NCBI GenBank assembly: GCA_018652475.1
Contig: JABICB010000009.1
Span: forward strand, 1 to 58,033
Direction: 5' to 3'
DNA from: an archaeon
GTDB taxonomy: Archaea; Nanobdellota; Nanobdellia; SCGC-AAA011-G17; PNOQ01
DNA length: 58,033 nucleotides
Shown here: one piece after another, positions 2,921-57,828 of the stretch
Layout: each line of letters opens with the position of its first letter
Numbering within the stretch: the first letter of the stretch is position 1
Program-made: the position numbers and the translations under genes
Notes under the pieces: model-generated
What the model was told of the DNA's origin: nothing
Database searches by the model: none
What the model saw: only the letters and a program-made list of their open reading frames with translations

Positions 2921-3088
2921 ATGGCAAAAGATAAAATACAAATGCCTTCCAGCGGTGGAGGATTAGTGAGATATTTTGATGAATATAAGAGTAAGTTCAT
3001 GTTTAAACCAGGAACTATTGTTTTTTGGATTGTATTAGTTATTATTATTGAGATTTTATTACATACTTATGGGGGTAATTTAATTTAA
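2921..3088 (+). CDS. secG: preprotein translocase subunit Sec61-beta (SecG, archaeal); 55 aa, absent from the ORF track
   Basis: Manual translation gives MAKDKIQMPSSGGGLVRYFDEYKSKFMFKPGTIVFWIVLVIIIEILLHTYGGNLI. It has the conserved PSSGGGL(I/V)RYFDE motif plus a C-terminal TM helix. The stop lies 1 nt before the NAC ATG. Confidence 0.8.
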   Translation: MAKDKIQMPSSGGGLVRYFDEYKSKFMFKPGTIVFWIVLVIIIEILLHTYGGNLI

Positions 3089-3089
3089 A

Positions 3090-3416
3090 ATGATGCCAGG
3101 TATGGATCCTCGGAAAATGCAAAAGATGATGAATCGTATGGGTATCAAACAACAAGAAATTGATGCTATTGAAGTAATCATAAAGACAACTGATAAAAAT
3201 TTAATTATAAGAAATCCTAGTGTTACTAAGATTGATATGATGGGTCAAAAAACTCTTCAAATTACTGGTGATATTGAGGAAGAAAGTTCTATTTCTGAAG
3301 AAGATATTAAAACCGTTTCTGAACAAGCTGAAGTTCTTGAAGAAGAAGCTAAAAAAGCACTAGAAGAGTCAGATGGTGATTTAGCTGAAGCTATACTAAA
3401 TCTTAAAAAAGAATAG
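3090..3416 (+). CDS. nac: nascent polypeptide-associated complex protein (NAC domain + UBA)
   Basis: MMPGMDPRKMQKMMNRMGIK ... VIIKT ... C-terminal ALEESDGDLAEAIL UBA-like tail. Confidence 0.85.
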   Translation: MMPGMDPRKMQKMMNRMGIKQQEIDAIEVIIKTTDKNLIIRNPSVTKIDMMGQKTLQITGDIEEESSISEEDIKTVSEQAEVLEEEAKKALEESDGDLAEAILNLKKE

Positions 3417-3457: not shown

Positions 3458-4120
3458 ATGAATAAAATTAAAAAATCACTATTAACTGCTGGTATGTTAG
3501 GTTTGTTAGGATATGGGATGTTAACAAATCCTCCTAAATTAATTAGTAGTTCTGAGTTTGATGATAATGGGGTGAATTTGGAGTTGAGATTGGATTCTAC
3601 TTCATTTTTAGATATATCTGATAAGGAAATGGGATTGTCAAGAGAGAGAGTTGAATCTCTATTTTCTAATAATGGTGCTAGTTGTGCAGGGGCACTTTCA
3701 GTTTGTTATGCTGAAGTATTTAGGGGAAGAAGATTTGGCGGATTGATTGGTGCACATTATAAAGGGGATAATGGTGGAGTTTATGGTAATGCTTGGGATA
3801 TGAGAGATAATGTTATTTCACAGGGTGGAGAAGTAATATATTCTGGTGATTATGATAATTTCAAATCTATAGATTTCGATATAGGTTCACTTAGTTCAGG
3901 AGATATTCTTGGAATTTATTATGATGGAAGTAATTATAAAAAACCTGCGAAGGAATCCTTGGGTGATAATTATTACACTCATGTGGGTTTAATAATTGGA
4001 GAAAATGATTTAAATGAACCCATTATTATACATTATGTGAACAAACAGTTAATTGTTGAACCCTTGAAAGATTTAATTGATAAAAAAGATTACTCCCTTA
4101 AGGAAGTTTTCAGACCTTAA
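3458..4120 (+). CDS. secreted/anchored NlpC/P60-CHAP-like papain-fold hydrolase
   Basis: N-terminal hydrophobic anchor. Cys (ASCAGAL), GNAWDMRDN, YTHVGLII and IIHY align with the C-terminal domain of 5612..6727 (QCARGV, GNAWDMRKN, YTHVGFVV, IAHF), giving a Cys-His-His arrangement. Confidence 0.6.
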   Translation: MNKIKKSLLTAGMLGLLGYGMLTNPPKLISSSEFDDNGVNLELRLDSTSFLDISDKEMGLSRERVESLFSNNGASCAGALSVCYAEVFRGRRFGGLIGAHYKGDNGGVYGNAWDMRDNVISQGGEVIYSGDYDNFKSIDFDIGSLSSGDILGIYYDGSNYKKPAKESLGDNYYTHVGLIIGENDLNEPIIIHYVNKQLIVEPLKDLIDKKDYSLKEVFRP

Positions 4121-4172: not shown

Positions 4173-5576
4173 ATGGTGGACAACTATCAATCATATATGG
4201 AGTATGCACTTTTTAATAAAAATTTAACTTCTGAAGATGCAGAATATGTTATAAAAAATGTAGTTAAGAGAAAAGAGGATTTTGATACAGAAAAATTAAA
4301 ATTAATTTCTGAAGGTCATAGCGAAACAGAAACTTTACGATCAATTTATACAAATAGGATGGAAAATAGATTTATTCCAAAAAAATATTTACCTTCTTTT
4401 GTTGATGCTGCTATAGAATACTGGATGGGAAACAAATCTGATTTGAATTTTTCAAAAATTAATTCTGAAATTGTCAATAAATTATCAAAAACTGAAAATG
4501 TTGGTATCTCTTTTGCAAAAAGTTTGGCAGATAATCTTTTTGAAAATTATCATAATTCTATAATTTTAGATTCAATTAATGGTGAATTCAGTGAACTTGA
4601 AGTTTTAGTAAATGGTGAATTTGATGAATATTCCTATGATTATCCAGAAGGAGAGAATAATTTCCATTCTTTTATTAGAAAGTGTGATTTGAAAAGTATA
4701 TATTCAAATTATTTTAGTGATAAACGTCCAGTGAATCATCCTGAGTTTGGTTATGATAAACTATTTGTATTGACTTCAAGTAAGAATTGTTTTTTAGATA
4801 GTTTAAATTCATTAAATAATAAGGATTATTCTAGTTTTAGAAAAAACCCAATTATTCGTACTATTAATAAAATTCAAAGTGATGTGCCTAATTTATTTGG
4901 AAGTGTTTTATTAACACGAATGAAATCTGGGGGGAGGGCTGCAGATAAAATATTAAATGATGCTAGTCATCATGATATATTCGGAGTTAAATTATTAGTA
5001 GAAGATACTTCATATTTTTTCCCAGATTTTTCTGAAGACTTGTTCGATAATGATGAATTAAAAAATAATATAAGATTTAAATTAGAATCTTATTTGAAGA
5101 TTTCTTCATCCGAAGAGGTTACTTCGTTTTTAAAATCTGCATTGAATATATATGATACTGAAACCCATAGATTACCAATTCCTGCCACTTTAGATAATTC
5201 AAATGATATTTTTTCAATTGATAATCCTTATTTTTCTTTACTAATTCGTGCTTATGAAGTAATTGATTTTTTGGATAATTCAGATAAGTATAATTATCGT
5301 GTTTTAAATAGATTTACTAGGAAGGAATATCCTTCTGTCGTTTTCAAAATTGATGATGTTGATAATGATGAATCATTGGAGTTATTATTAGAACTTAACA
5401 AAACTGAAGATAAACTTTCTCATGATAATTATGTGACTCGGCGAGATCAGGTTACTAAATATTTAAAGAAAGTAATTCCTGAATTAGGTTCACTTAGTGA
5501 GTTTATTGATAATAAGTTATATCCTTCTCTAGATTTAGTTAATTTACAAAAATATTCTGATATTGATGAAAATTAG
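4173..5576 (+). CDS. hypothetical protein (467 aa, cytoplasmic, no recognised domain)
   Basis: Long ORF with ATG start and no signal peptide or TM segment. Lies between the two NlpC/P60-like genes. Confidence 0.6.
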   Translation: MVDNYQSYMEYALFNKNLTSEDAEYVIKNVVKRKEDFDTEKLKLISEGHSETETLRSIYTNRMENRFIPKKYLPSFVDAAIEYWMGNKSDLNFSKINSEIVNKLSKTENVGISFAKSLADNLFENYHNSIILDSINGEFSELEVLVNGEFDEYSYDYPEGENNFHSFIRKCDLKSIYSNYFSDKRPVNHPEFGYDKLFVLTSSKNCFLDSLNSLNNKDYSSFRKNPIIRTINKIQSDVPNLFGSVLLTRMKSGGRAADKILNDASHHDIFGVKLLVEDTSYFFPDFSEDLFDNDELKNNIRFKLESYLKISSSEEVTSFLKSALNIYDTETHRLPIPATLDNSNDIFSIDNPYFSLLIRAYEVIDFLDNSDKYNYRVLNRFTRKEYPSVVFKIDDVDNDESLELLLELNKTEDKLSHDNYVTRRDQVTKYLKKVIPELGSLSEFIDNKLYPSLDLVNLQKYSDIDEN

Positions 5577-5611: not shown

Positions 5612-6727
5612 ATGAAAAGAGGTTTTGTATTAGTTTTAGCATTTTTGTTATGTATTAGTTTTGTTAGTGCAAAAATTCCTATTAAAGATATTTCCGTTTC
5701 AGAAATTAATATTGATGAGCAAAGGGAAGAAAGTATTACTCGTTATATCTATGGGCTAAATGGTTTAGTTGCTTCTGTATCTGATTCTGGGATTAATTAT
5801 TATCATTCTGATAGATTAAAAAGTAATAGATTAATAACTAACTCTTTTGGTGAAATTATTAAACAGTTTAACTCCTTGCCTTTTGGGCAGGAAATTGAGA
5901 ATACTGGAATAAAATTTAGTTTTGCGACTGGAAAAGAATTAGATGAAAGTGATCTTTATCATTTTGGTGCACGTTATTATGATTCTGATTTGGGCAGGTT
6001 TACATCTATTGATCCAGTTAAAGAAAATCATGCTTATTCTTATGTTAGAAATAATCCTATGAATTTAGTTGATCCTAATGGTAGGGATGCTGTCAGTTTA
6101 AAACAAATTAATCTTCCTTCTGGTTATACTAATAATATTTTTGAATCTATGAGGGCTAATTTTGAGAATGTACACAATGCCGGCAAATATCAATGTGCAA
6201 GAGGGGTGAGTTATGCATATCAAACTTGGGCAGATATATCTAAAGATGAAAGAATTAAAAATACTAAGGTAACTGGTAATGCGTGGGACATGAGAAAAAA
6301 TATTGATAATTCAATATTAACAAAAAAGGTTACAGCTTATTCCGATTTTACTTCTGAAGAATTAAATTTATTTAAAGAAGGTGATATAATAGGAATTTAT
6401 AATCGTGATAGCAGTTATAATACTGCTGCAAAGGTGAAATTAGGTAACAATAATTATTATACTCACGTAGGTTTTGTTGTTGATGTTTTAAAAGATGGTA
6501 ATCCTATTATTGCACATTTTATAAAAGATACTATGAAAGTTGAAACTCTTTCTAATCTATTATCGGGGAAATTCGAATTTAGGGAATTATTGCGTCCAAA
6601 TCATTCTATTCAAGTAAACCTTAGGGAATGGTCTAAAGAGTATAAAGAAACTGGAAGTTCATCTATTAATACTTTTCACCACACAGTATCAGATAATCTG
6701 CCTGTAGAATTGCCTATTCCAGATTAG
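5612..6727 (+). CDS. secreted RHS repeat-associated-core protein with C-terminal NlpC/P60-CHAP-like domain (mini-RHS 2)
   Basis: Signal peptide ending VSA-K. Core motifs YYHSDRLKSNRL, LPFGQE, LYHFGARYYDSDLGRFTSIDP, NNPMNLVDPNG. The C-terminal domain is homologous to 3458..4120. Confidence 0.8.
   Translation: MKRGFVLVLAFLLCISFVSAKIPIKDISVSEINIDEQREESITRYIYGLNGLVASVSDSGINYYHSDRLKSNRLITNSFGEIIKQFNSLPFGQEIENTGIKFSFATGKELDESDLYHFGARYYDSDLGRFTSIDPVKENHAYSYVRNNPMNLVDPNGRDAVSLKQINLPSGYTNNIFESMRANFENVHNAGKYQCARGVSYAYQTWADISKDERIKNTKVTGNAWDMRKNIDNSILTKKVTAYSDFTSEELNLFKEGDIIGIYNRDSSYNTAAKVKLGNNNYYTHVGFVVDVLKDGNPIIAHFIKDTMKVETLSNLLSGKFEFRELLRPNHSIQVNLREWSKEYKETGSSSINTFHHTVSDNLPVELPIPD
5726..6082 (+). 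repeat. dispersed 357-nt RHS-core module, copy 2
   Basis: Aligns with copies 1 and 3. Long identical runs with copy 3 extend up to the DPxG junction, and similarity ends after it. Confidence 0.85.
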
Positions 6728-6762: not shown

Positions 6763-7257
6763 ATGGAAGAATTTCGTAAGTTAGTGGCGAAGGCAAATAA
6801 ACATTATAAAATTGCAGATCATATGACTTATGTAAGTTATAGACTATTAACTGACTTAAAAATTTTAATTAATGTTATTGAAAATATCAACAAGTCTTTG
6901 AAAGGTGGTGTTGATGCTTTATTGAAGTTAGATTACATTTACAAAAGAGTTAATTCCTATCCGCCTACTTTTGATGAAAGATTTATTTTATTTAAACAAC
7001 ATTGTATGAATCGTTATAAAATTGGAACTGAACAAATGTTATTGATTAGGGAATTAGATAGTATTTTAGCTCAGTATAAAAAAAGTCCAATGGCCTTTAC
7101 TCGTAATGAAAAGTTTGTTATTTATTCGGACGGATATAAAACTATGGAAACTTTGGATTTGAAAATTGTCAAATCTTATCTTTTAAAAGCAAAGGTTTTT
7201 ATATTAATATTGAATAATATACTACAAGAGAAGAATGCAGACTATAGACTTAGCTAA
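6763..7257 (+). CDS. hypothetical helical protein, paralogue of 7235..7675 (HEPN-like helical domain?)
   Basis: KIADHMTYVSY ... SYPPTFDERF pattern shared with the next ORF and with the C-terminal domains of the NTase proteins at 36925 and 45145. Overlaps the next gene. Confidence 0.55.
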   Translation: MEEFRKLVAKANKHYKIADHMTYVSYRLLTDLKILINVIENINKSLKGGVDALLKLDYIYKRVNSYPPTFDERFILFKQHCMNRYKIGTEQMLLIRELDSILAQYKKSPMAFTRNEKFVIYSDGYKTMETLDLKIVKSYLLKAKVFILILNNILQEKNADYRLS

Positions 7258-7675
7258 AGAGGAATTAAAACGTGTTGATCATATGTTCTATGTTAGTTTA
7301 AAATATACTAGGACTTGTGACGTCATTAGGAATATCATCAATAGGATGATAGCATCATATAATTATGTCTTTTCAGCAATTTTAGAGGATTTAGAATCTG
7401 ATGATAAAATTAGCGCTATACCTACTCATGATAGATTACGTGCGGAGAAAGTATTAGAATTGAAAAAAAATCATAAAGAATTCATCCAGCATTATTTTTT
7501 ATTGAGAAAAATTCATGATGCTGAATTCGATAGGCGTGAAGAATATAGAAAACATGTTACTTTGCTTGCCAAGTTCGGAGAGGATACAATCTTCGAAGTA
7601 AATGTTCCCTTAATTTTAGATTATTATAAAAAAGTCATAGAATATATAAAAATGGTTGAAGAGGAATTAAAATGA
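7235..7675 (+). CDS. hypothetical helical protein, paralogue of 6763..7257
   Basis: KRVDHMFYVSLKY ... AIPTHDRLRAEKVL. Its start overlaps the upstream stop and its stop overlaps the minD ATG (ATGA). Confidence 0.55.
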   Translation: MQTIDLAKEELKRVDHMFYVSLKYTRTCDVIRNIINRMIASYNYVFSAILEDLESDDKISAIPTHDRLRAEKVLELKKNHKEFIQHYFLLRKIHDAEFDRREEYRKHVTLLAKFGEDTIFEVNVPLILDYYKKVIEYIKMVEEELK

Positions 7676-8421
7676 CAAAATTTATAGGAATATTATCTGG
7701 AAAAGGGGGCGTTGCTAAAACAACTACTGTTGTAAATTTAGGGGCAGCTATGAATTATTTTGGCAGAGATGTTACACTTGTTGATGGAAATTTATCTACT
7801 CCTCACTTAGGTATTCATTTAGGGGTTCCGATTGTGCCTATCAGTTTGCACGATGCATTGAGTGGAAAAAATTCTTTGATTGAAGCAATGTATTTGCATC
7901 AATCGGGCATGAAGATCATTCCAGCAGGATTGTCTCTTAAGGATCTTATTGAAGTAGATCATTCAAAATTAAAAGAAGTTTTACCTACTTTGGAAGGTTT
8001 AACTGACATAGTATTAGTTGATGCTTCAGCAGGTTTAAGTGGCGAAGCTAGTGCAGTTTTAGACTGTGTACAAGATGTTATTGTGATTACTAATCCGGAA
8101 TTGCCTGCAGTTACAGATGCATTAAAAACTGTTAAATTGGCAGAGAGTAAAGGTAAAAATGTTAAGGGAATCATTGTTGCAAAAACAGGAGATGTTACTG
8201 ATATTCCTGTTGAAAATATTGCGGCATTAATTGAAAAACCAATATTAGCTATTATTCCTTTTGATAAATCAATTAGACAGTCTTTAATAAAAAAAGATCC
8301 AGTAATTTATACAAATCCTACTTCTAAAAGTGCACTTGCTTATAAAAAATTAGCTGCAGATTTAATTGGAATGGAATATAGGGTTGAAAAAAATAGCTGG
8401 TATAAATTTTGGAAGAAATAA
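7672..8421 (+). CDS. minD: MinD/ParA-family P-loop ATPase (archaeal MinD type)
   Basis: Deviant Walker A motif SGKGGVAKTT. Typical MinD length and motif order. Confidence 0.85.
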   Translation: MTKFIGILSGKGGVAKTTTVVNLGAAMNYFGRDVTLVDGNLSTPHLGIHLGVPIVPISLHDALSGKNSLIEAMYLHQSGMKIIPAGLSLKDLIEVDHSKLKEVLPTLEGLTDIVLVDASAGLSGEASAVLDCVQDVIVITNPELPAVTDALKTVKLAESKGKNVKGIIVAKTGDVTDIPVENIAALIEKPILAIIPFDKSIRQSLIKKDPVIYTNPTSKSALAYKKLAADLIGMEYRVEKNSWYKFWKK

Positions 8422-12368: not shown

Positions 12369-12376
12369 TTTATAAA
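12369..12376 (+). promoter_or_regulatory. TATA box (TTTATAAA) ~27 nt upstream of ATG 12399
   Basis: Sequence and spacing. Confidence 0.5.
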
Positions 12377-12398
12377 TATATATAATTGATTATTAATT

Positions 12399-13571
12399 AT
12401 GAAAAGGGGTCATGTACTGGTGTTAGTATTTTTGTTATGTATCAGTTTTGCTAGTGCAAAAGTTTCTATTAAGGATATTTATTCAGGGGGTGATCTTGAT
12501 GAGCAAAGGGAAGAAAGTATTACTCGTTATATTTATGGGTTAAATGGTTTAGTTGCATCTGTATCTAATTCTGAGATTAATTATTATCATTCTGATAGAT
12601 TAAAAAGTAATAGGGTTGTTAGTGATGAAGATGGTCAACTAGTTAGTAAATTCAAATCATTACCTTTTGGACAGGAAATTGAAAACACTGGAATTAAATT
12701 TAGTTTTGCAACTGAAAAGGAATTAGATGATTCTGGTTTGTATTATTTTGGTGCCAGGTATTATGATTCTGATTTGGGCAGGTTTACATCTGTTGATCCA
12801 GTTAAAGAAAATCATGCTTATTCTTATGTTATGAATAATCCAATGAATTTAGTTGATCCTACTGGTATGGCTGGGACTACTATTATTCCTGATGACTCTA
12901 CTTTTATAGGCCCATTAGAAGAAGATAAAATGTATGCTTCGGATTATTTATTTTCTTGGTATTCCGGTTTATCTTCTGGTGAACAAAATACCCTGCTTAA
13001 TGCAGGTGCAGGAAGTTTAGTAACTGATGAATTAACGGGAAATTCTATCACTGGATATAGTAAGGGTGGACATAAGGGTTTAAAAATCAGTATTAATAAT
13101 TATTTTACATTATTATTTAAAATTAATAAAGAGGTACCCAATAATAAAATTTCTTTTTCTGATATTATCATTACAGAAGTTTCAAGGCATCAAACGGGGA
13201 GCGATATACATTCTAATATTAAATCAGATGGGAGTACCATAGCATTTCAACCAGATGTTGCTAGCAATCAACAATTATATTTGACTAAAAAACCCGGATC
13301 AAACACTAGATCTGAATTTCAAACGTTGAAGACTGGCAAGGATTTAACTAATGTGTTAGATGTAGATAGTTTAACTGCAAAACATAAATATACTAATAAA
13401 ATGGATTATGCCCAAATCCATGGTATTGGATGTTCAATAGGTTGTTATATGACTTCTAATGCAAGGGTTATTTCAAACTATATTAGTAATTCTAATACTA
13501 AATATAATAATGTTATTCGAGCTGCTGGTTTTGTAAATGCGCTTCCTTTATTTATAAAAAATATACAATAA
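12399..13571 (+). CDS. secreted RHS repeat-associated-core protein with unrecognised C-terminal domain (mini-RHS 3)
   Basis: Signal peptide ending ASA-K. The core module is near-identical to copy 2 (YYHSDRLKSNRV, LPFGQE, LYYFGARYYDSDLGRFTSVDP, NNPMNLVDPTG). The 235-aa tail has no recognisable motif. Confidence 0.8.
   Translation: MKRGHVLVLVFLLCISFASAKVSIKDIYSGGDLDEQREESITRYIYGLNGLVASVSNSEINYYHSDRLKSNRVVSDEDGQLVSKFKSLPFGQEIENTGIKFSFATEKELDDSGLYYFGARYYDSDLGRFTSVDPVKENHAYSYVMNNPMNLVDPTGMAGTTIIPDDSTFIGPLEEDKMYASDYLFSWYSGLSSGEQNTLLNAGAGSLVTDELTGNSITGYSKGGHKGLKISINNYFTLLFKINKEVPNNKISFSDIIITEVSRHQTGSDIHSNIKSDGSTIAFQPDVASNQQLYLTKKPGSNTRSEFQTLKTGKDLTNVLDVDSLTAKHKYTNKMDYAQIHGIGCSIGCYMTSNARVISNYISNSNTKYNNVIRAAGFVNALPLFIKNIQ
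12510..12866 (+). repeat. dispersed 357-nt RHS-core module, copy 3
   Basis: See copies 1 and 2. 12721..12786 is identical to 1958..2023. Confidence 0.85.
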
Positions 13572-13688: not shown

Positions 13689-16483
<2,795 letters not shown>

Positions 16484-16497
<14 letters not shown>

Positions 16498-56025: not shown

Positions 56026-56603
56026 AATTCACCAAATATTTTCATTACTGCTTTTTTGAATTGTGTATACATATCTGTATCTGCTATACTTTCGTTTTCA
56101 TTAAATGATTTACACATTGATATATAATACCATTTTTGTTCTTCTTTTGGTGCATGAAATTTTTCCCAAACTTTTTCACCCATTATTTTATGATCTTCTA
56201 TTGTTGTCCTTATATTTGAAAGTTTATCTGCACAAGAAAGCATTTTCATATCCCGGTTTGCAGTTTTTATGAATTTGATAGTGTGGCTTTTATTGGTTTT
56301 CCATATATTTTCTGGTTTAATTGTTATTTTTTTCTTTTCTAGTTTTGATGGTTCTGTTGCCCCTCTAACTAATTCTGCTACCCCTCTTCCAAATTCTTTT
56401 TCAATATCCTCCATAGTGGTATCGGTATCTTCTACTGTGTCGTGTAAAAGTCCTGCAATTACTGCATTAGGAGTTGCATTATTTTTCATTAAAATTATTG
56501 ACACTTCCATTGGGTGGATGATATATGGTGCCCCAGTTCCTTTTCTTTTTTGACCTAAATGTGCCTCGTGTGCAAATTCAAATGCTTTAGTTATTCTTTC
56601 CAT
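56022..56603 (-). CDS. stand-alone RelA/SpoT-type HD-domain hydrolase (small alarmone hydrolase / Mesh1-like)
   Basis: AHLGQKRKGTGAPYIIHPMEV...AGLLHDTVEDT...FGRGVAELVRG. Confidence 0.8.
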   Translation of the reverse strand: MERITKAFEFAHEAHLGQKRKGTGAPYIIHPMEVSIILMKNNATPNAVIAGLLHDTVEDTDTTMEDIEKEFGRGVAELVRGATEPSKLEKKKITIKPENIWKTNKSHTIKFIKTANRDMKMLSCADKLSNIRTTIEDHKIMGEKVWEKFHAPKEEQKWYYISMCKSFNENESIADTDMYTQFKKAVMKIFGEF

Positions 56604-57828
56604 GTTTAATTAATTTAATTTCTTCTATTCTTTGCATATCTATTTTTGTTATAATTATTTCTATATCATCTATTTTCAATTTATCTTTTTTCTTTGGAAT
56701 TCTTCCAAGTTTATCTAAGATTAATCCACTAATTGTGTTTGAATCTTCTCTTTCTTCAAGTTCTAATTTTAATCTTTCATTGATCAAATCTAACTCAGTA
56801 TTTCCTTTAATTAAATATGTTCTTGATTCAATTCTTTTGATGGGTTTTTCTTCTTTATCAGTTTCATCATAGATTTCTCCAGTTATCTCTTCTAATAAAT
56901 CTTCAAGAGTTACTAAACCTTCAATTCCACCGTGTTCATCAACTACCATCGCCATATGCATTTTTTTATTTTGAAATTCTTTTAGTAGTAAATCTATTCT
57001 TTTATTTCTTGGAACAAATAATGTTTTTCTTGCTATTTTTTTAAGATTGATTTTTCTTTTTGTATTTAAGTAAGGGATTAAATCTTTTATATATAAAAGG
57101 CCAATAATATTATCTTTATTCTCTTCGTATATTGGTATTCTTGAAAATCCAGATTCCTTAATTGTTTTTTTAATTTCATTAAGTTTTGAATTTACTTCTA
57201 AGGAAGTTACATTAGTTCTTGGAGTCATAACTTCCCAAGTATGAATATCATTGAATGTGAAAATGTTATGAATCATCTCTTTCTCTATCTTTTCAATTGC
57301 TCCTTCTTCTTCACCCATTGTAACTAATGTTTTAATTTCATCTTCTGTTATTTTTGGTATATTCTTATCTCTCATTACTGCCTTAGTTAATCCTTCGAAT
57401 AAACTTATTAGGGGTTTTAGTCCTATTCCTATAATATAAATTGGTTTTGCAGCCATCAGTGCTATTTTTTCTGCATGTTTTGTTGCTATAGTTTTCGGTA
57501 TTATCTCTCCAAATGTTAATATTAAAAAAGTCATAACTCCTGTTGCAATTCCAACTCCTTTACTTCCAAACATTTCTATAGCTATTGCTGTTGCAAAAGA
57601 AGCTCCGAAAATATTCACTACATTATTTGCTATTGCGATATTTATTAATAACTGGTGTGGATTCTCTCTTATTTTTTTCAAAGTTAAAGAACCCTTTCTC
57701 TTTTGATCTACTAAATGCCTTATTTTCAATCTACTTAATGATATTAAAGCAATTTCACTGCTCGAAAAAAAAGCTGATAGAAACAAGACTATAGTTAATG
57801 TTATTATTTCTGTATACATGTAGTGCAC
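56587..57828 (-). CDS. CNNM/CorC-family transporter (DUF21 + CBS pair + CorC_HlyC)
   Basis: N-terminal TM DUF21 region, a CBS pair, and a C-terminal transporter-associated domain. Confidence 0.8.
   Translation of the reverse strand: MHYMYTEIITLTIVLFLSAFFSSSEIALISLSRLKIRHLVDQKRKGSLTLKKIRENPHQLLINIAIANNVVNIFGASFATAIAIEMFGSKGVGIATGVMTFLILTFGEIIPKTIATKHAEKIALMAAKPIYIIGIGLKPLISLFEGLTKAVMRDKNIPKITEDEIKTLVTMGEEEGAIEKIEKEMIHNIFTFNDIHTWEVMTPRTNVTSLEVNSKLNEIKKTIKESGFSRIPIYEENKDNIIGLLYIKDLIPYLNTKRKINLKKIARKTLFVPRNKRIDLLLKEFQNKKMHMAMVVDEHGGIEGLVTLEDLLEEITGEIYDETDKEEKPIKRIESRTYLIKGNTELDLINERLKLELEEREDSNTISGLILDKLGRIPKKKDKLKIDDIEIIITKIDMQRIEEIKLIKHGKNN

Follow-up and report, generated by a model that had tools for sequence, protein, structure and literature searches.

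An archaeal family of short RHS-core proteins with exchangeable tails, and one orphan tail as a candidate effector

Bacterial Rhs and TcC proteins have an RHS core that ends in a plug, with a hypervariable C-terminal domain right after it. The plug is recognised by two Asp-Pro motifs ca 17–23 residues apart, the second of which has the form DPxG plus a hydrophobic residue and lies at the boundary between core and tail, and it is at this DPxG junction that the tails are exchanged by recombination. In the case of Rhs1, the chain is cleaved after DPLGL, the second motif supplies the catalytic Asp, and the D1338N substitution abolishes cleavage (PMC8636562). A second related group are the soluble, Sec-dependent ('T2SS-type') polymorphic toxins, in which the variable toxin tail is preceded by a signal peptide, a short N-terminal region that is conserved, and an autoproteolytic element (Zhang et al. 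2012, PMC3482391). Polymorphic toxin systems are regarded as rare in archaea, which lack most of the immunity superfamilies (PMC3482391).

Features of both groups recur in the gene considered here, which belongs to a marine DPANN archaeon of the Woesearchaeota type. It lies on contig JABICB010000009.1 (assembly GCA_018652475.1), which was analysed over its 58,033 nucleotides (called the window below), and it consists of the following parts.

12369–12378, + strand: TATA-like box TTTATAAATA, centred ca 26 nt 5′ of the ATG, as read from the sequence
12399–13571, + strand: RHS-core mini-gene (copy 3), 390 aa
12399–12458, + strand: predicted Sec-type signal peptide, aa 1–20 (MKRGHVLVLVFLLCISFASA, followed by K), with basic n-region, hydrophobic core and A-x-A cleavage site
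12459–12866, + strand: RHS terminal module, aa 21–156, with two to three YD-type beta hairpins and the RHS repeat-associated core (plug/aspartyl-protease region of Rhs/TcC shells)
12795–12800, + strand: first Asp-Pro motif, D133-P134, invariant in the 13-sequence family alignment
12855–12869, + strand: second motif (DPxG), D153-P-T-G-M157, with D153 and G156 invariant in the same alignment
12867–13568, + strand: orphan C-terminal tail, M157–Q390, 234 aa, candidate released effector

The tail was originally given as 235 aa, one residue too many. That it is a real coding frame follows from its 234 open codons, which have a chance of ca 8e-9 at the given base composition, from the 9–36 stops in the other five frames across it, and from its host-like GC3 of 0.175, as compared to 0.16–0.18 for gyrA and gyrB. 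In addition, an exact metatranscriptome contig of 141 nt from the marine run X7 falls within the tail (13064–13204, + strand, depth 3.7). It carries adapter remnants at both ends, and the same run also gives contigs in gyrB and across the gyrB 3′ end at similar depth. The gene is thus live as judged by the long host-like frame and the exact contig, the transcript evidence being weak because a single low-depth contig could also stem from DNA carry-over. The TATA-like box may be an archaeal promoter for a leaderless mRNA, an assignment that we infer only, because TATA-like strings are common in DNA of 30% GC.

Upstream of the gene lies a divergent PIN-domain gene, and downstream lies gyrB. A secreted DUF4015 glycosyl-hydrolase-like gene is located 2 kb downstream, and no full-length RHS gene is present within the window.

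The end of an RHS shell behind a signal peptide

The preliminary description had assigned a signal peptide and an RHS core to this protein, and both assignments are borne out. The strongest hydrophobic 19-residue window of the whole protein begins at aa 4–7, the structural model of the module has an N-terminal helix at aa 4–18, and the segment equivalent to the signal peptide is conserved in all full-length family members. The core (aa 89–157) matches TIGR03696 (NCBIfam) over model positions 3–76 of 76, with E 2.8e-19 and a score of 69.4 bits, the curated cut-off being 32.5, and the two paralogues in the window pass this cut-off as well. A 13-member family profile matches the last ca 100–125 residues of TccC3, TccC2, YenC2, T6SS Rhs, teneurin-like and SGS1 chains with E-values of 3e-16 to 2e-4. 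All alignments to Rhs/TcC chains end at profile G156, near or at the C-terminus of cleaved or truncated chains. To judge from these matches, the module corresponds to only the last ca 110 residues of an RHS shell, that is, to the terminal YD repeats and the aspartyl-protease plug.

The pair of Asp-Pro motifs that characterises Rhs/TcC plugs is found in the protein, with D133-P134 and D153-P-T-G-M157 separated by 20 residues. Rhs1 has two motifs of the DPxGL type (PMC8636562), and D133-P134 is the counterpart of the first. By analogy with Rhs1, D153-P-T-G-M157 is the predicted site of autoproteolysis, with cleavage after M157.

What is missing is the large YD-repeat shell, as only ca 135 mature residues precede the junction. 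Since no more than the last ca 110 residues of a shell are present, the module cannot enclose a domain of 234 aa. Nor do Pfam and NCBIfam reveal any N-terminal trafficking domain (PAAR/VgrG-binding, TcB-binding or T7SS), and the signal peptide leads straight into the YD hairpins. The term delivery module, which had been used for this part of the protein, does therefore not hold in the Rhs sense. The AF2 model of the module is of moderate quality (pLDDT 62), and its top 35 Foldseek hits are all Rhs, teneurin or Tc structures. It should be pointed out that the known Rhs/TcC plugs work inside a cocoon, and that folding and cleavage of a shell-less fragment of ca 135 aa are a prediction.

Tail exchange at a fixed junction in an archaeal family

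A tblastn search with the module finds only three copies in the window, the gene at 12399–13571 and two paralogues.

1648–2880, + strand: copy 1, same module, singleton tail with HEFEH (HExxH motif) and higher GC (0.36)
5612–6727, + strand: copy 2, same signal peptide and module, papain-like (CHAP-type Cys...His) tail

Copy 2 matches CHAP with E 1.2e-3 when the whole protein is used and with E 4.4e-4 when only its tail is used, neither match reaching the Pfam cut-off. Its tail is 33% identical to ORF 3458–4120 (E 1e-20). Over aa 1–156, copy 3 is identical to copy 2 at 79.6% and to copy 1 at 62.5% of the amino acids. At the DNA level, the modules of copies 3 and 2 are 84% identical, with four identical runs of 33–39 nt. 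The earlier statement that they are almost identical is right as to the high similarity and somewhat overstated in degree. In 30-nt windows, the DNA identity of the two copies is 43–57% upstream of 12387 and from 12860 on. As these flanks are at the background identity of 30% GC DNA, the paralogues are similar from the start codon up to DPTG (G156 at 12864–12866), which agrees with the end of similarity first noted at VDPTG. Beyond it, the tail resembles neither of the other two tails (phmmer E > 1), as had been reported, nor anything else in the window (tblastn).

The same junction is seen outside the window. Divergent marine metagenome contigs stop matching at 12865–12870, and the depth of metagenome contigs over the module is several-fold that over the tail; some of the contigs that break at the junction are possibly paralogues of the same genome and not other strains. 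A Woesearchaeota contig with conserved gene order (L002, MinD 81% identical) has a LysM tail at the site that is orthologous to copy 2, whereas its CHAP-like tail belongs to the other copy. A conserved N-terminus is thus combined with a hypervariable tail that is exchanged at a fixed DPxG junction, as observed in the window, in related genomes and in a family of more than 100 members. D153-P-T-G-M157, the predicted cleavage site, would accordingly be placed at the recombination junction as well. In one related contig, a mini-RHS gene has an in-frame stop in its tail, which means that decay does occur in the family.

Relatives of the module were found in at least 583 of 598 candidate stretches in GTDB genomes and in at least 486 of 600 in metagenomes. 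Among the matches listed, the combination of signal peptide and module occurs almost only in archaeal MAGs that are either unclassified or of the Woesearchaeota/Nanoarchaeota type, and a genome has several copies. In bacterial relatives, 1400 to more than 2000 codons precede the same module match, and the short bacterial ORFs among the relatives include Bacteroidales loci with only 4–30 codons upstream of it. The gene is thus one of a lineage-specific, shell-less RHS family of Woesearchaeota-type (DPANN) archaea. Its members have 304–475 aa, and with a median tail of 238.5 aa in 112 complete genes, a tail of 234 aa is typical. The first tail residue is Met in 60 of 114 members. These 114 tails form 70 clusters, with 47 singletons among them, and Pfam has no match for ca 90% of 71 representative tails. 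Five domains, PF15644 (papain-fold toxin 1, glutamine deamidase), Peptidase_C39_2, CHAP, LysM and isochorismatase, are each found in one representative tail and give the sibling tails an effector character, although some sibling tails look binding-like rather than enzyme-like (FlgD_ig/Por_Secre_tail-like, LysM). The tail of copy 3 is indeed unrecognisable, as was first stated, and in this it follows the rule of the family and is no exception.

A further property of the family concerns immunity genes. The cognate immunity gene of polymorphic toxin systems (Zhang et al. 2012) is not found at ORF 12399–13571. In line with the preliminary description, there is no ORF of at least 30 aa on either strand between its stop (13571) and gyrB (13701). 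Of the 92 family genes for which 700 nt or more of 3′ sequence were available, 11 (ca 12%) have a small same-strand ORF within 150 nt downstream, three of these ORFs being a MinD-linked housekeeping gene, and for 51 of the 92 (55%) the next gene is convergent. One family gene (L003) is followed by three membrane-protein paralogues. ORFs 6763–7257 and 7235–7675, 3′ of copy 2, were considered as immunity genes and rejected, because the pair accompanies MinD and not the mini-RHS gene in two other contigs (L002 and L023). The missing immunity gene is thus a rule of the family, which weakens the analogy with classical toxin–immunity systems and points to targets that are absent in the producer. Of the polymorphic-toxin analogy drawn originally, the variable tails at a fixed DPxG junction remain.

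The orphan tail and its possible action

The tail is an orphan as far as sequence comparison reaches. Two protein searches, one of them exhaustive, gave no credible match in ca 15 billion proteins. Namely, a k-mer-indexed search of 5.8 billion clusters returned only the protein itself, and an exhaustive phmmer search of 1.84 billion representatives returned the protein and five weak multi-stretch matches (E 5e-9 to 7e-4). No recognised toxin family was matched, as neither the whole tail nor three sub-segments have a match in Pfam, NCBIfam or PHROGs at E ≤ 10, and none was found for the tail among PDB sequences. The contigs of GTDB genomes, JGI metagenomes and IMG/VR contain no relative of the tail, tblastn against 159 fetched family loci gave nothing, and hhalign against 69 other family tail clusters gave at best 2.4% probability. 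Exact matches to the tail are present in marine metagenomes from three studies. The contigs that cover the tail in six metagenome runs do not differ from the window, so that natural variation is absent from this sample, and because there are no homologues, the tail offers neither a conservation signal nor a measure of selection.

Two stretches within the tail are of interest for its function.

13185–13313, + strand: PD40/TolB-type propeller repeat-like stretch, tail aa 107–149 (RHQTGSDIHSNIKSDGSTIAFQPDVASNQQLYLTKKPGSNTRS), a single stretch with motif-level resemblance
13419–13445, + strand: HGIGCSIGC, the only two cysteines of the tail beside a histidine, also readable as G-x-S-x-G

Four of the five exhaustive-search matches are PD40/TolB-type repeat proteins that hit tail aa 107–149 three to eight times with at most 15.6 bits each, and the fifth (P0034) is a large repetitive protein aligned to tail aa 15–67. 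They were rejected as homologues, being sums of short single-stretch matches of at most 15.6 bits in the alignments inspected. Membership in the PD40/TolB propellers was likewise not accepted, as there is no Pfam PD40 match at E ≤ 10, no internal repeat and only the one repeat-like stretch. The structure prediction and Foldseek search proposed at the outset speak neither for nor against an effector, as the AF2 model made without an alignment has pLDDT 37 and the best Foldseek match has E 0.73, the matches being noise; for the middle of the tail, the model suggests a beta-rich structure at low confidence.

The motif HGIGCSIGC may be a catalytic or metal site. No D, E or H follows it, and it has no family match. 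An alpha/beta-hydrolase G-x-S-x-G at GCSIG was not adopted, since the canonical order of the triad is impossible without a later Asp or His. A permuted papain-like His...Cys hydrolase (H108/H115...C189) has a compatible residue order and no profile support, and was not adopted either. The deaminase HxE/PCxxC, ART R-S-E and HNH motifs are absent from the tail. Neither a membrane anchor nor a lipobox nor a C-terminal sorting signal is found in the protein, whose only strongly hydrophobic stretch is the signal peptide.

The most likely reading, to which we assign a probability of roughly 0.5, is that of an exchangeable, self-cleaving effector, exported by Sec and directed at other cells, for which an immunity protein is not required. 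The signal peptide (aa 1–20) would carry the protein across the membrane, and the mature aa 21–156 would represent the terminal strip of an RHS shell, that is, two to three YD hairpins and a plug with the paired Asp-Pro aspartyl-protease motifs. As in Rhs and TcC, the plug would cut its own chain just after D153-P-T-G-M157, and a tail of 233 or 234 aa would be freed outside the cell. The conserved 468-nt segment shared by the paralogues would serve as the homology arm for tail exchange at one junction. The tail would be the working part, a secreted effector on the envelope or surface of another cell, either a bacterial neighbour or the host of the archaeon. Because the proposed target is absent from the producer, an immunity gene would be unnecessary. 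Of this reading, the sequence data show the domain anatomy, the junction, the polymorphism of the tails, the family, the lack of immunity genes and the orphan state of the tail; export, self-cleavage, extracellular action and any activity of this tail are inferred.

More tentatively, one can speculate that this is a previously undescribed, cocoon-less RHS effector system of Woesearchaeota-type DPANN archaea, in which a Sec signal peptide and a bare self-cleaving plug would export and release hundreds of mostly novel-fold effectors aimed at bacteria or host cells, no immunity genes being involved. The segment 12867–13568 would then be a new effector fold and activity, possibly a His/Cys hydrolase at HGIGCSIGC.

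As another option, the tail may be a surface or binding domain that is not toxic, for example an adhesin or a host-recognition domain by which the symbiotic archaeon attaches to partner cells, with the RHS strip anchoring or presenting it. DPANN archaea depend on cell contact, which would fit such a role, as would the beta-rich middle of the tail, the PD40-like stretch and the Ig-like FlgD_ig/Por_Secre_tail and LysM binding modules among the sibling tails; a harmless protein would also be expected to lack an immunity gene. However, the PD40 resemblance is confined to a single repeat of at most 15.6 bits that Pfam does not support at E ≤ 10, the protein has none of the anchors or sorting signals listed above, and the conserved Asp-Pro cleavage motifs imply release and not display. 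We consider this option unlikely.

We have also considered that the tail is a secreted scavenging enzyme for nutrition on extracellular polymers, and the family a diversified set of exo-enzymes. The recognisable sibling tails include hydrolases (CHAP, C39-like, isochorismatase-like), the DUF4015 glycosyl-hydrolase-like gene lies nearby, and peptidoglycan-degrading genes have been reported in Woesearchaeota (PMC9723730). What makes this quite improbable is the pattern of diversity, as 47 singletons among 114 tails and a differing tail at an orthologous locus are the signature of conflict-driven diversification, and one sibling carries the dedicated polymorphic-toxin domain PF15644. Scavenging enzymes are normally conserved across relatives.

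The general polymorphic-toxin architecture, and the small same-strand ORF directly downstream of 8–11 of the 92 family genes (for example after L003), could also indicate a classical polymorphic toxin harmful to its producer, with the immunity protein encoded elsewhere or unrecognisable. Against it speak the locus itself, where nothing suitable is adjacent between the divergent PIN-domain gene and gyrB, the convergent gene that comes next in 55% of the family, and the absence of most immunity superfamilies from archaea (PMC3482391), so that we give this scenario little credence. Finally, a decaying or non-functional cassette, a recombination remnant no longer under selection, would be in line with the missing homologues and the in-frame stop in a related contig, but is very improbable in view of the 234 open codons (P ca 8e-9), the stop-filled other frames, the composition ameliorated to the host, the typical tail length (median 238.5 aa) and the identical sequence in metagenomes of three studies and a metatranscriptome contig.

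Relation to known systems

To our knowledge, little is known about the interactions of DPANN archaea with neighbouring cells, or about their attacks on them. If the effector reading is true, the family would show that an RHS plug can work, or has been re-used, outside a cocoon, and it would provide testable candidates for weapons of archaea against bacteria, or of symbionts against hosts, that do without immunity. The combination of signal peptide, module and DPxG would be a sequence handle by which hundreds of uncharacterised secreted domains of uncultured archaea could be harvested. The pay-off from the single tail at 12867–13568 is smaller, as it is one of many orphan tails and not marked out from the others.

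With the bacterial Rhs and TcC proteins, the archaeal protein shares the RHS core, the two Asp-Pro motifs of which the second is DPxG followed by a hydrophobic residue, the hypervariable domain after it and the exchange of tails at the junction. In contrast to them, it has no YD-repeat cocoon, and with ca 135 mature residues instead of roughly 700–1400, encapsulation is not possible. It has a plain Sec signal peptide in place of a PAAR, VgrG or TcB-binding N-terminus, lacks a downstream immunity gene, and comes from an archaeal host.

The T2SS-type toxins have the same kinds of parts, and one of their domains, Papain-fold toxin 1 (PF15644; Zhang et al. 2012, PMC3482391), forms a sibling tail. 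The predicted processing element is here an RHS plug and not HINT, ZU5 or PrsW, and immunity genes are generally missing. The secreted peptidoglycan hydrolases of archaea that act against bacteria (PMC12352652), including the murein hydrolases of Woesearchaeota (PMC9723730), have a target absent in the producer and need no immunity, as is proposed here, and they resemble the family in the CHAP-, C39- and LysM-type sibling tails. These hydrolases fall into conserved families that can be recognised, and no fusion of them to an RHS core is reported, whereas the tail at 12867–13568 carries no recognisable hydrolase signature.

Similar in length and content are the orphan rhs-CT cassettes of bacteria, which also consist of the end of a core and a tail of ca 200 aa; short bacterial ORFs of this kind, such as the Bacteroidales loci, are among the relatives of the module. 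The cassettes have no start or export signal, lie beside a full-length rhs gene and keep their immunity gene. The archaeal copies, on the other hand, each have their own signal peptide and a likely promoter, and stand among housekeeping genes.

Anatomy and neighbourhood of the mini-RHS genes

A tblastn search of the whole window with the module, that is, residues 1–156 of copy 3, comprising the signal peptide and the terminal RHS piece, finds three copies and no others:

1648–2880, + strand: mini-RHS copy 1, a paralogue
5612–6727, + strand: mini-RHS copy 2, a paralogue
12399–13571, + strand: mini-RHS copy 3, an ORF of 390 aa

The module of copy 3 is 79.6% identical to that of copy 2 and 62.5% to that of copy 1. 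At the DNA level the identity to copy 2 is 84%, with four perfect runs of 33–39 nt, and it is 43–57%, the AT-rich background level, upstream of ca 12387 and from 12860 on. The similarity is thus limited by the start codon and D153-P-T-G156 (12855–12866), in agreement with the sharp end at DPTG given in the preliminary description.

Residues 1–20 (MKRGHVLVLVFLLCISFASA, followed by K) look like a Sec signal peptide, which would most simply explain the export of copy 3. Residues 89–157 match TIGR03696 (RHS repeat-associated core) with 69.4 bits (cut-off 32.5). Among solved structures, a module profile built from 13 family members aligns solely with the very C-terminal end of RHS-type shells (E 3e-16 to 2e-4); TccC3, TccC2, YenC2, several T6SS Rhs proteins, a teneurin-like protein and SGS1 of mosquitoes are among the proteins matched. 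Nearly all of these alignments stop at position 156 of the profile and thereby reach, or almost reach, the end of the cleaved or truncated chain; in the 690-residue YenC2 chain the last residue aligned is 689. The AlphaFold model of the module, based on an alignment of 28 sequences, is of moderate confidence (pLDDT 62; 70–84 in the YD hairpins), and its top 35 Foldseek matches are all Rhs, teneurin or Tc structures.

In the family alignment D133-P134 and D153-P-x-G156 are invariant, and in 60 of 114 members G156 is followed by Met. The paired DP motifs match those of P. laumondii Rhs1, in which residues 1263–1357 form a C-terminal plug; this aspartyl protease has a pair of DPLGL motifs with a spacing of 17 residues, the cut comes after the second motif, and D1338N abolishes it (PMC8636562). 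The module is made up only of the last two to three YD hairpins and the plug, which by analogy with Rhs1 would be self-cleaving. Having ca 135 mature residues, it is unable to form a cocoon, which makes the earlier term 'delivery module' a poor name. The most fitting interpretation of the RHS piece is that of a self-processing element that also provides a handle for recombination.

The window is an archaeal contig of low GC content (about 29%). From their translations, not from database matches, we take further ORFs to encode the ribosomal proteins S27ae and S24e, Spt4, the RNA-polymerase E' subunit, aIF2-gamma, aIF5B and gyrB/gyrA, and the small divergent ORF upstream of copy 3 to be a PIN-domain gene. 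The apparent gap after copy 1 (2921–3416, + strand) contains two short ORFs, presumably Sec61-beta (55 aa) and a nascent-polypeptide-associated complex protein (108 aa). Their order is unchanged in L002, a family locus on the Woesearchaeota MAG contig CAZTYO010000017.1, so that the mini-RHS copies lie among core genes and not in an island. Other neighbours are:

4173–5576, + strand: 467-aa protein without family match, between two mini-RHS copies; same position in L002 (47% identity)
6763–7257 and 7235–7675, + strand: two overlapping small genes (164 and 146 aa) without family match, upstream of MinD (7672–8421)
15592–16497, + strand: secreted DUF4015 gene, putative glycosyl hydrolase (E 2e-47), between gyrB and gyrA
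56587–57828, − strand: TlyC/CorC-type ORF with multiple N-terminal membrane helices, as read from the translation

The two small genes carry the motifs ADHMTYVSY and VDHMFYVSLKY, respectively, and are kept (66–68% identity), always directly upstream of MinD, in L002 and in the family loci L023, L085 and L087. On related Woesearchaeota contigs their position is tied to MinD irrespective of the mini-RHS location, and they probably constitute a MinD-associated module. The DUF4015 gene overlaps the ends of gyrB and gyrA by a few bases, an unusual insertion in the gyrase pair. The TlyC/CorC gene type has been counted as 'pore-forming toxin' in Woesearchaeota (PMC9723730); the product encoded here resembles an ordinary transporter of the CorC/HlyC family and is perhaps no toxin.

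The mini-RHS family and the exchange of its tails

The module profile has at least 583 relatives among 598 candidate stretches from GTDB genomes and at least 486 among 600 from metagenomes. Among the GTDB matches listed, those spanning the signal peptide come nearly all from Woesearchaeota, Nanoarchaeota or unclassified archaeal MAGs, and the bacterial module matches either have 1400 to more than 2000 codons of shell in front or are start-less orphan fragments. The best 80 of the metagenome relatives are mostly complete 'signal peptide + module' forms, often with two to three copies on one contig. Tandem arrays of two to four mini-RHS genes are seen at L014 (2048–7120) and L046 (758–3435), and across the fetched loci (L001–L159) the genes tend towards transcription-unit ends among housekeeping genes.

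The fetched loci yielded 127 copies, 112 of them complete, with a median tail of 238.5 aa, which makes the length of the copy 3 tail typical. Clustering of 114 tails gave 70 clusters. Of these, 47 have a single member, among them tails 1 and 3 of the window; for tail 2 there are three relatives. On 71 representative tails only eight Pfam families were met, each once: Isochorismatase, Gln_amidase (PF15644, 'papain fold toxin 1'), LysM, Peptidase_C39_2, DUF4846, FlgD_ig, CHAP and Por_Secre_tail. An unrecognisable tail is thus the family norm.

Tail exchange is directly visible when L002 is compared with the window, with which it is syntenic (MinD 81%, the 467-aa neighbour 47% and the two MinD-linked genes 66–68% identical). 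The L002 locus orthologous to copy 2 has a tail containing LysM, and a CHAP-like tail, broken by a stop codon, is found there on another mini-RHS copy. The sequences concerned, together with two from the window, are:

L002:1832–3100: first mini-RHS gene of L002, in-frame stop after 267 aa
2116–2877, + strand: tail of copy 1, with an HEFEH (HExxH, zinc-peptidase-like) motif; a family singleton
3458–4120, + strand: stand-alone secreted protein of 220 aa with its own N-terminal hydrophobic segment

Past the stop in L002, the frame encodes the remainder of the CHAP-like domain (...YTHLAVTVG...FRP); a pseudogene, a sequencing error or read-through could account for it. The C-terminal 160 aa of the stand-alone protein, whose ORF is absent from L002, are 33% identical to the copy 2 tail (E 1e-20), with the Cys (SCAGA/QCARG) and His (YYTHVG) kept as in a CHAP/NlpC-P60-type hydrolase; one cargo domain thus occurs both free and fused to the RHS module. 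The copy 1 tail has a GC content of 0.36 (GC3 0.22), clearly above the rest of the window (~0.30), which suggests a recently acquired cassette. In marine metagenomes the depth over the copy 3 module is several-fold above that over its tail, and several divergent contigs cease matching at 12865–12870 and continue into unrelated sequence, although some of these may be same-genome paralogues.

Our main reading, to which as a whole we assign a probability of about one half, is that the copy 3 product would be exported by Sec, that the RHS plug would cut its own chain after DPTGM, that the released effector of 233/234 aa would act on the envelope or surface of another cell, and that the tails would diversify via recombination through the conserved 468-nt segment. 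The anatomy, the junction, the polymorphism of the tails, the family and the lack of an immunity gene are established; export, cleavage in the absence of a shell and any activity of the copy 3 tail are inferred. Most of the tails that can be recognised are papain-like hydrolases or modules that bind cell walls, and one is a dedicated polymorphic-toxin domain. Tails of the binding type fit the rival reading of the copy 3 tail as a released or displayed binding domain, which we consider unlikely, and hydrolase tails fit that of a scavenging exo-enzyme, which we rate slightly lower still.

Immunity

As stated earlier, there is no small downstream immunity gene: no ORF of at least 30 aa lies between the copy 3 stop codon and gyrB, and no adjoining gene on either side qualifies as a candidate. 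This absence is a property of the family. Among 92 family genes for which the sequence extends 700 nt or more downstream, the next gene is convergent in 51 (55%), another same-strand gene in 19, a further mini-RHS in 7, and no ORF follows in 4. In 11 of the 92, a small ORF on the same strand lies within 150 nt, three of these ORFs being the conserved gene that accompanies MinD, not mini-RHS. Three paralogous small membrane-protein genes directly after a mini-RHS gene (L003:7246–8579) are possible immunity candidates.

A classical toxin whose immunity gene is unlinked would also leave copy 3 without such a neighbour, and given the family-wide pattern we hold this to be improbable. Most simply, the producer would lack the targets, bacterial peptidoglycan being one example. 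Peptidoglycan hydrolases with which archaea kill bacteria (PMC12352652) and murein hydrolases in Woesearchaeota (PMC9723730) have been reported.

The copy 3 tail and the place of the family

The copy 3 tail spans 12867–13568 and has 234 aa, not 235 as first described. It is genuine coding sequence: the chance of 234 open codons at its base composition is about 8e-9, the remaining five frames contain 9–36 stops, and its GC3 (0.175) matches gyrA/gyrB. That it is a decaying cassette is, against this intact frame, very improbable.

The tail is unrelated to the other two tails, as had been claimed, and to the remaining window sequence. An indexed search of 5.8 billion protein clusters retrieved nothing beyond the query protein, and an exhaustive HMMER scan of 1.84 billion representatives added five weak matches (E 5e-9 to 7e-4). 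Four of these are PD40/TolB-type propeller proteins, many repeats of which each align to tail residues 107–149 with at most 15.6 bits, and the fifth is a large repetitive protein aligned to residues 15–67; since the significance is a sum over repeats, all five were rejected as homologues. Tail sub-segments matched neither PD40 nor any other Pfam family at E ≤ 10. There was likewise no match in Pfam, NCBIfam, PHROGs, PDB sequences, GTDB genomes, JGI metagenomes, IMG/VR or the 159 fetched family loci, and the best hhalign probability against the 69 other tail clusters was 2.4%. The tail is thus as unrecognisable as first reported, with no credible relative in protein, profile, structure-sequence or contig searches. 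The structure prediction and Foldseek search proposed at that stage gave a model (AlphaFold without alignment, pLDDT 37) whose matches are noise. The tail is rich in Ser, Asn, Thr and Ile, lacks a hydrophobic anchor, and has its only two cysteines within HGIGCSIGC near the C-terminus; this motif and the composition are leads, not findings.

Exact-match contigs cover the tail at 2–6x depth in four runs of one marine study, and partially in two other studies. The metatranscriptome of the first study contains an exact 141-nt contig inside the tail (13064–13204), at a depth similar to gyrB contigs, which weakly suggests transcription of copy 3, with DNA carry-over possible. One putative upstream signal was noted:

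12369–12378, + strand: TATA-like box, ~26 nt before the ATG

Both this box, a possible archaeal promoter element, and the T-runs after the stop codon are no more than suggestive in such AT-rich DNA.

Some family proteins carry the NCBI label 'RHS repeat-associated core domain-containing protein [Candidatus Woesearchaeota archaeon]', so the domain is already known at the annotation level. In the searchable literature, to which the Makarova et al. 2019 review of archaeal polymorphic toxins did not belong, we found no paper on RHS repeats in Woesearchaeota, nor any that links YD repeats and toxins with DPANN. The family-level pattern is of greater interest than the single copy 3 tail. The family appears to comprise shell-less, Sec-exported, immunity-less RHS-core proteins of DPANN archaea, and the copy 3 tail would be one of many orphan cargo domains. 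In contrast to classical bacterial polymorphic toxin systems, mini-RHS genes generally stand without an immunity gene, which is consistent with a report that archaea lack most immunity superfamilies (PMC3482391).
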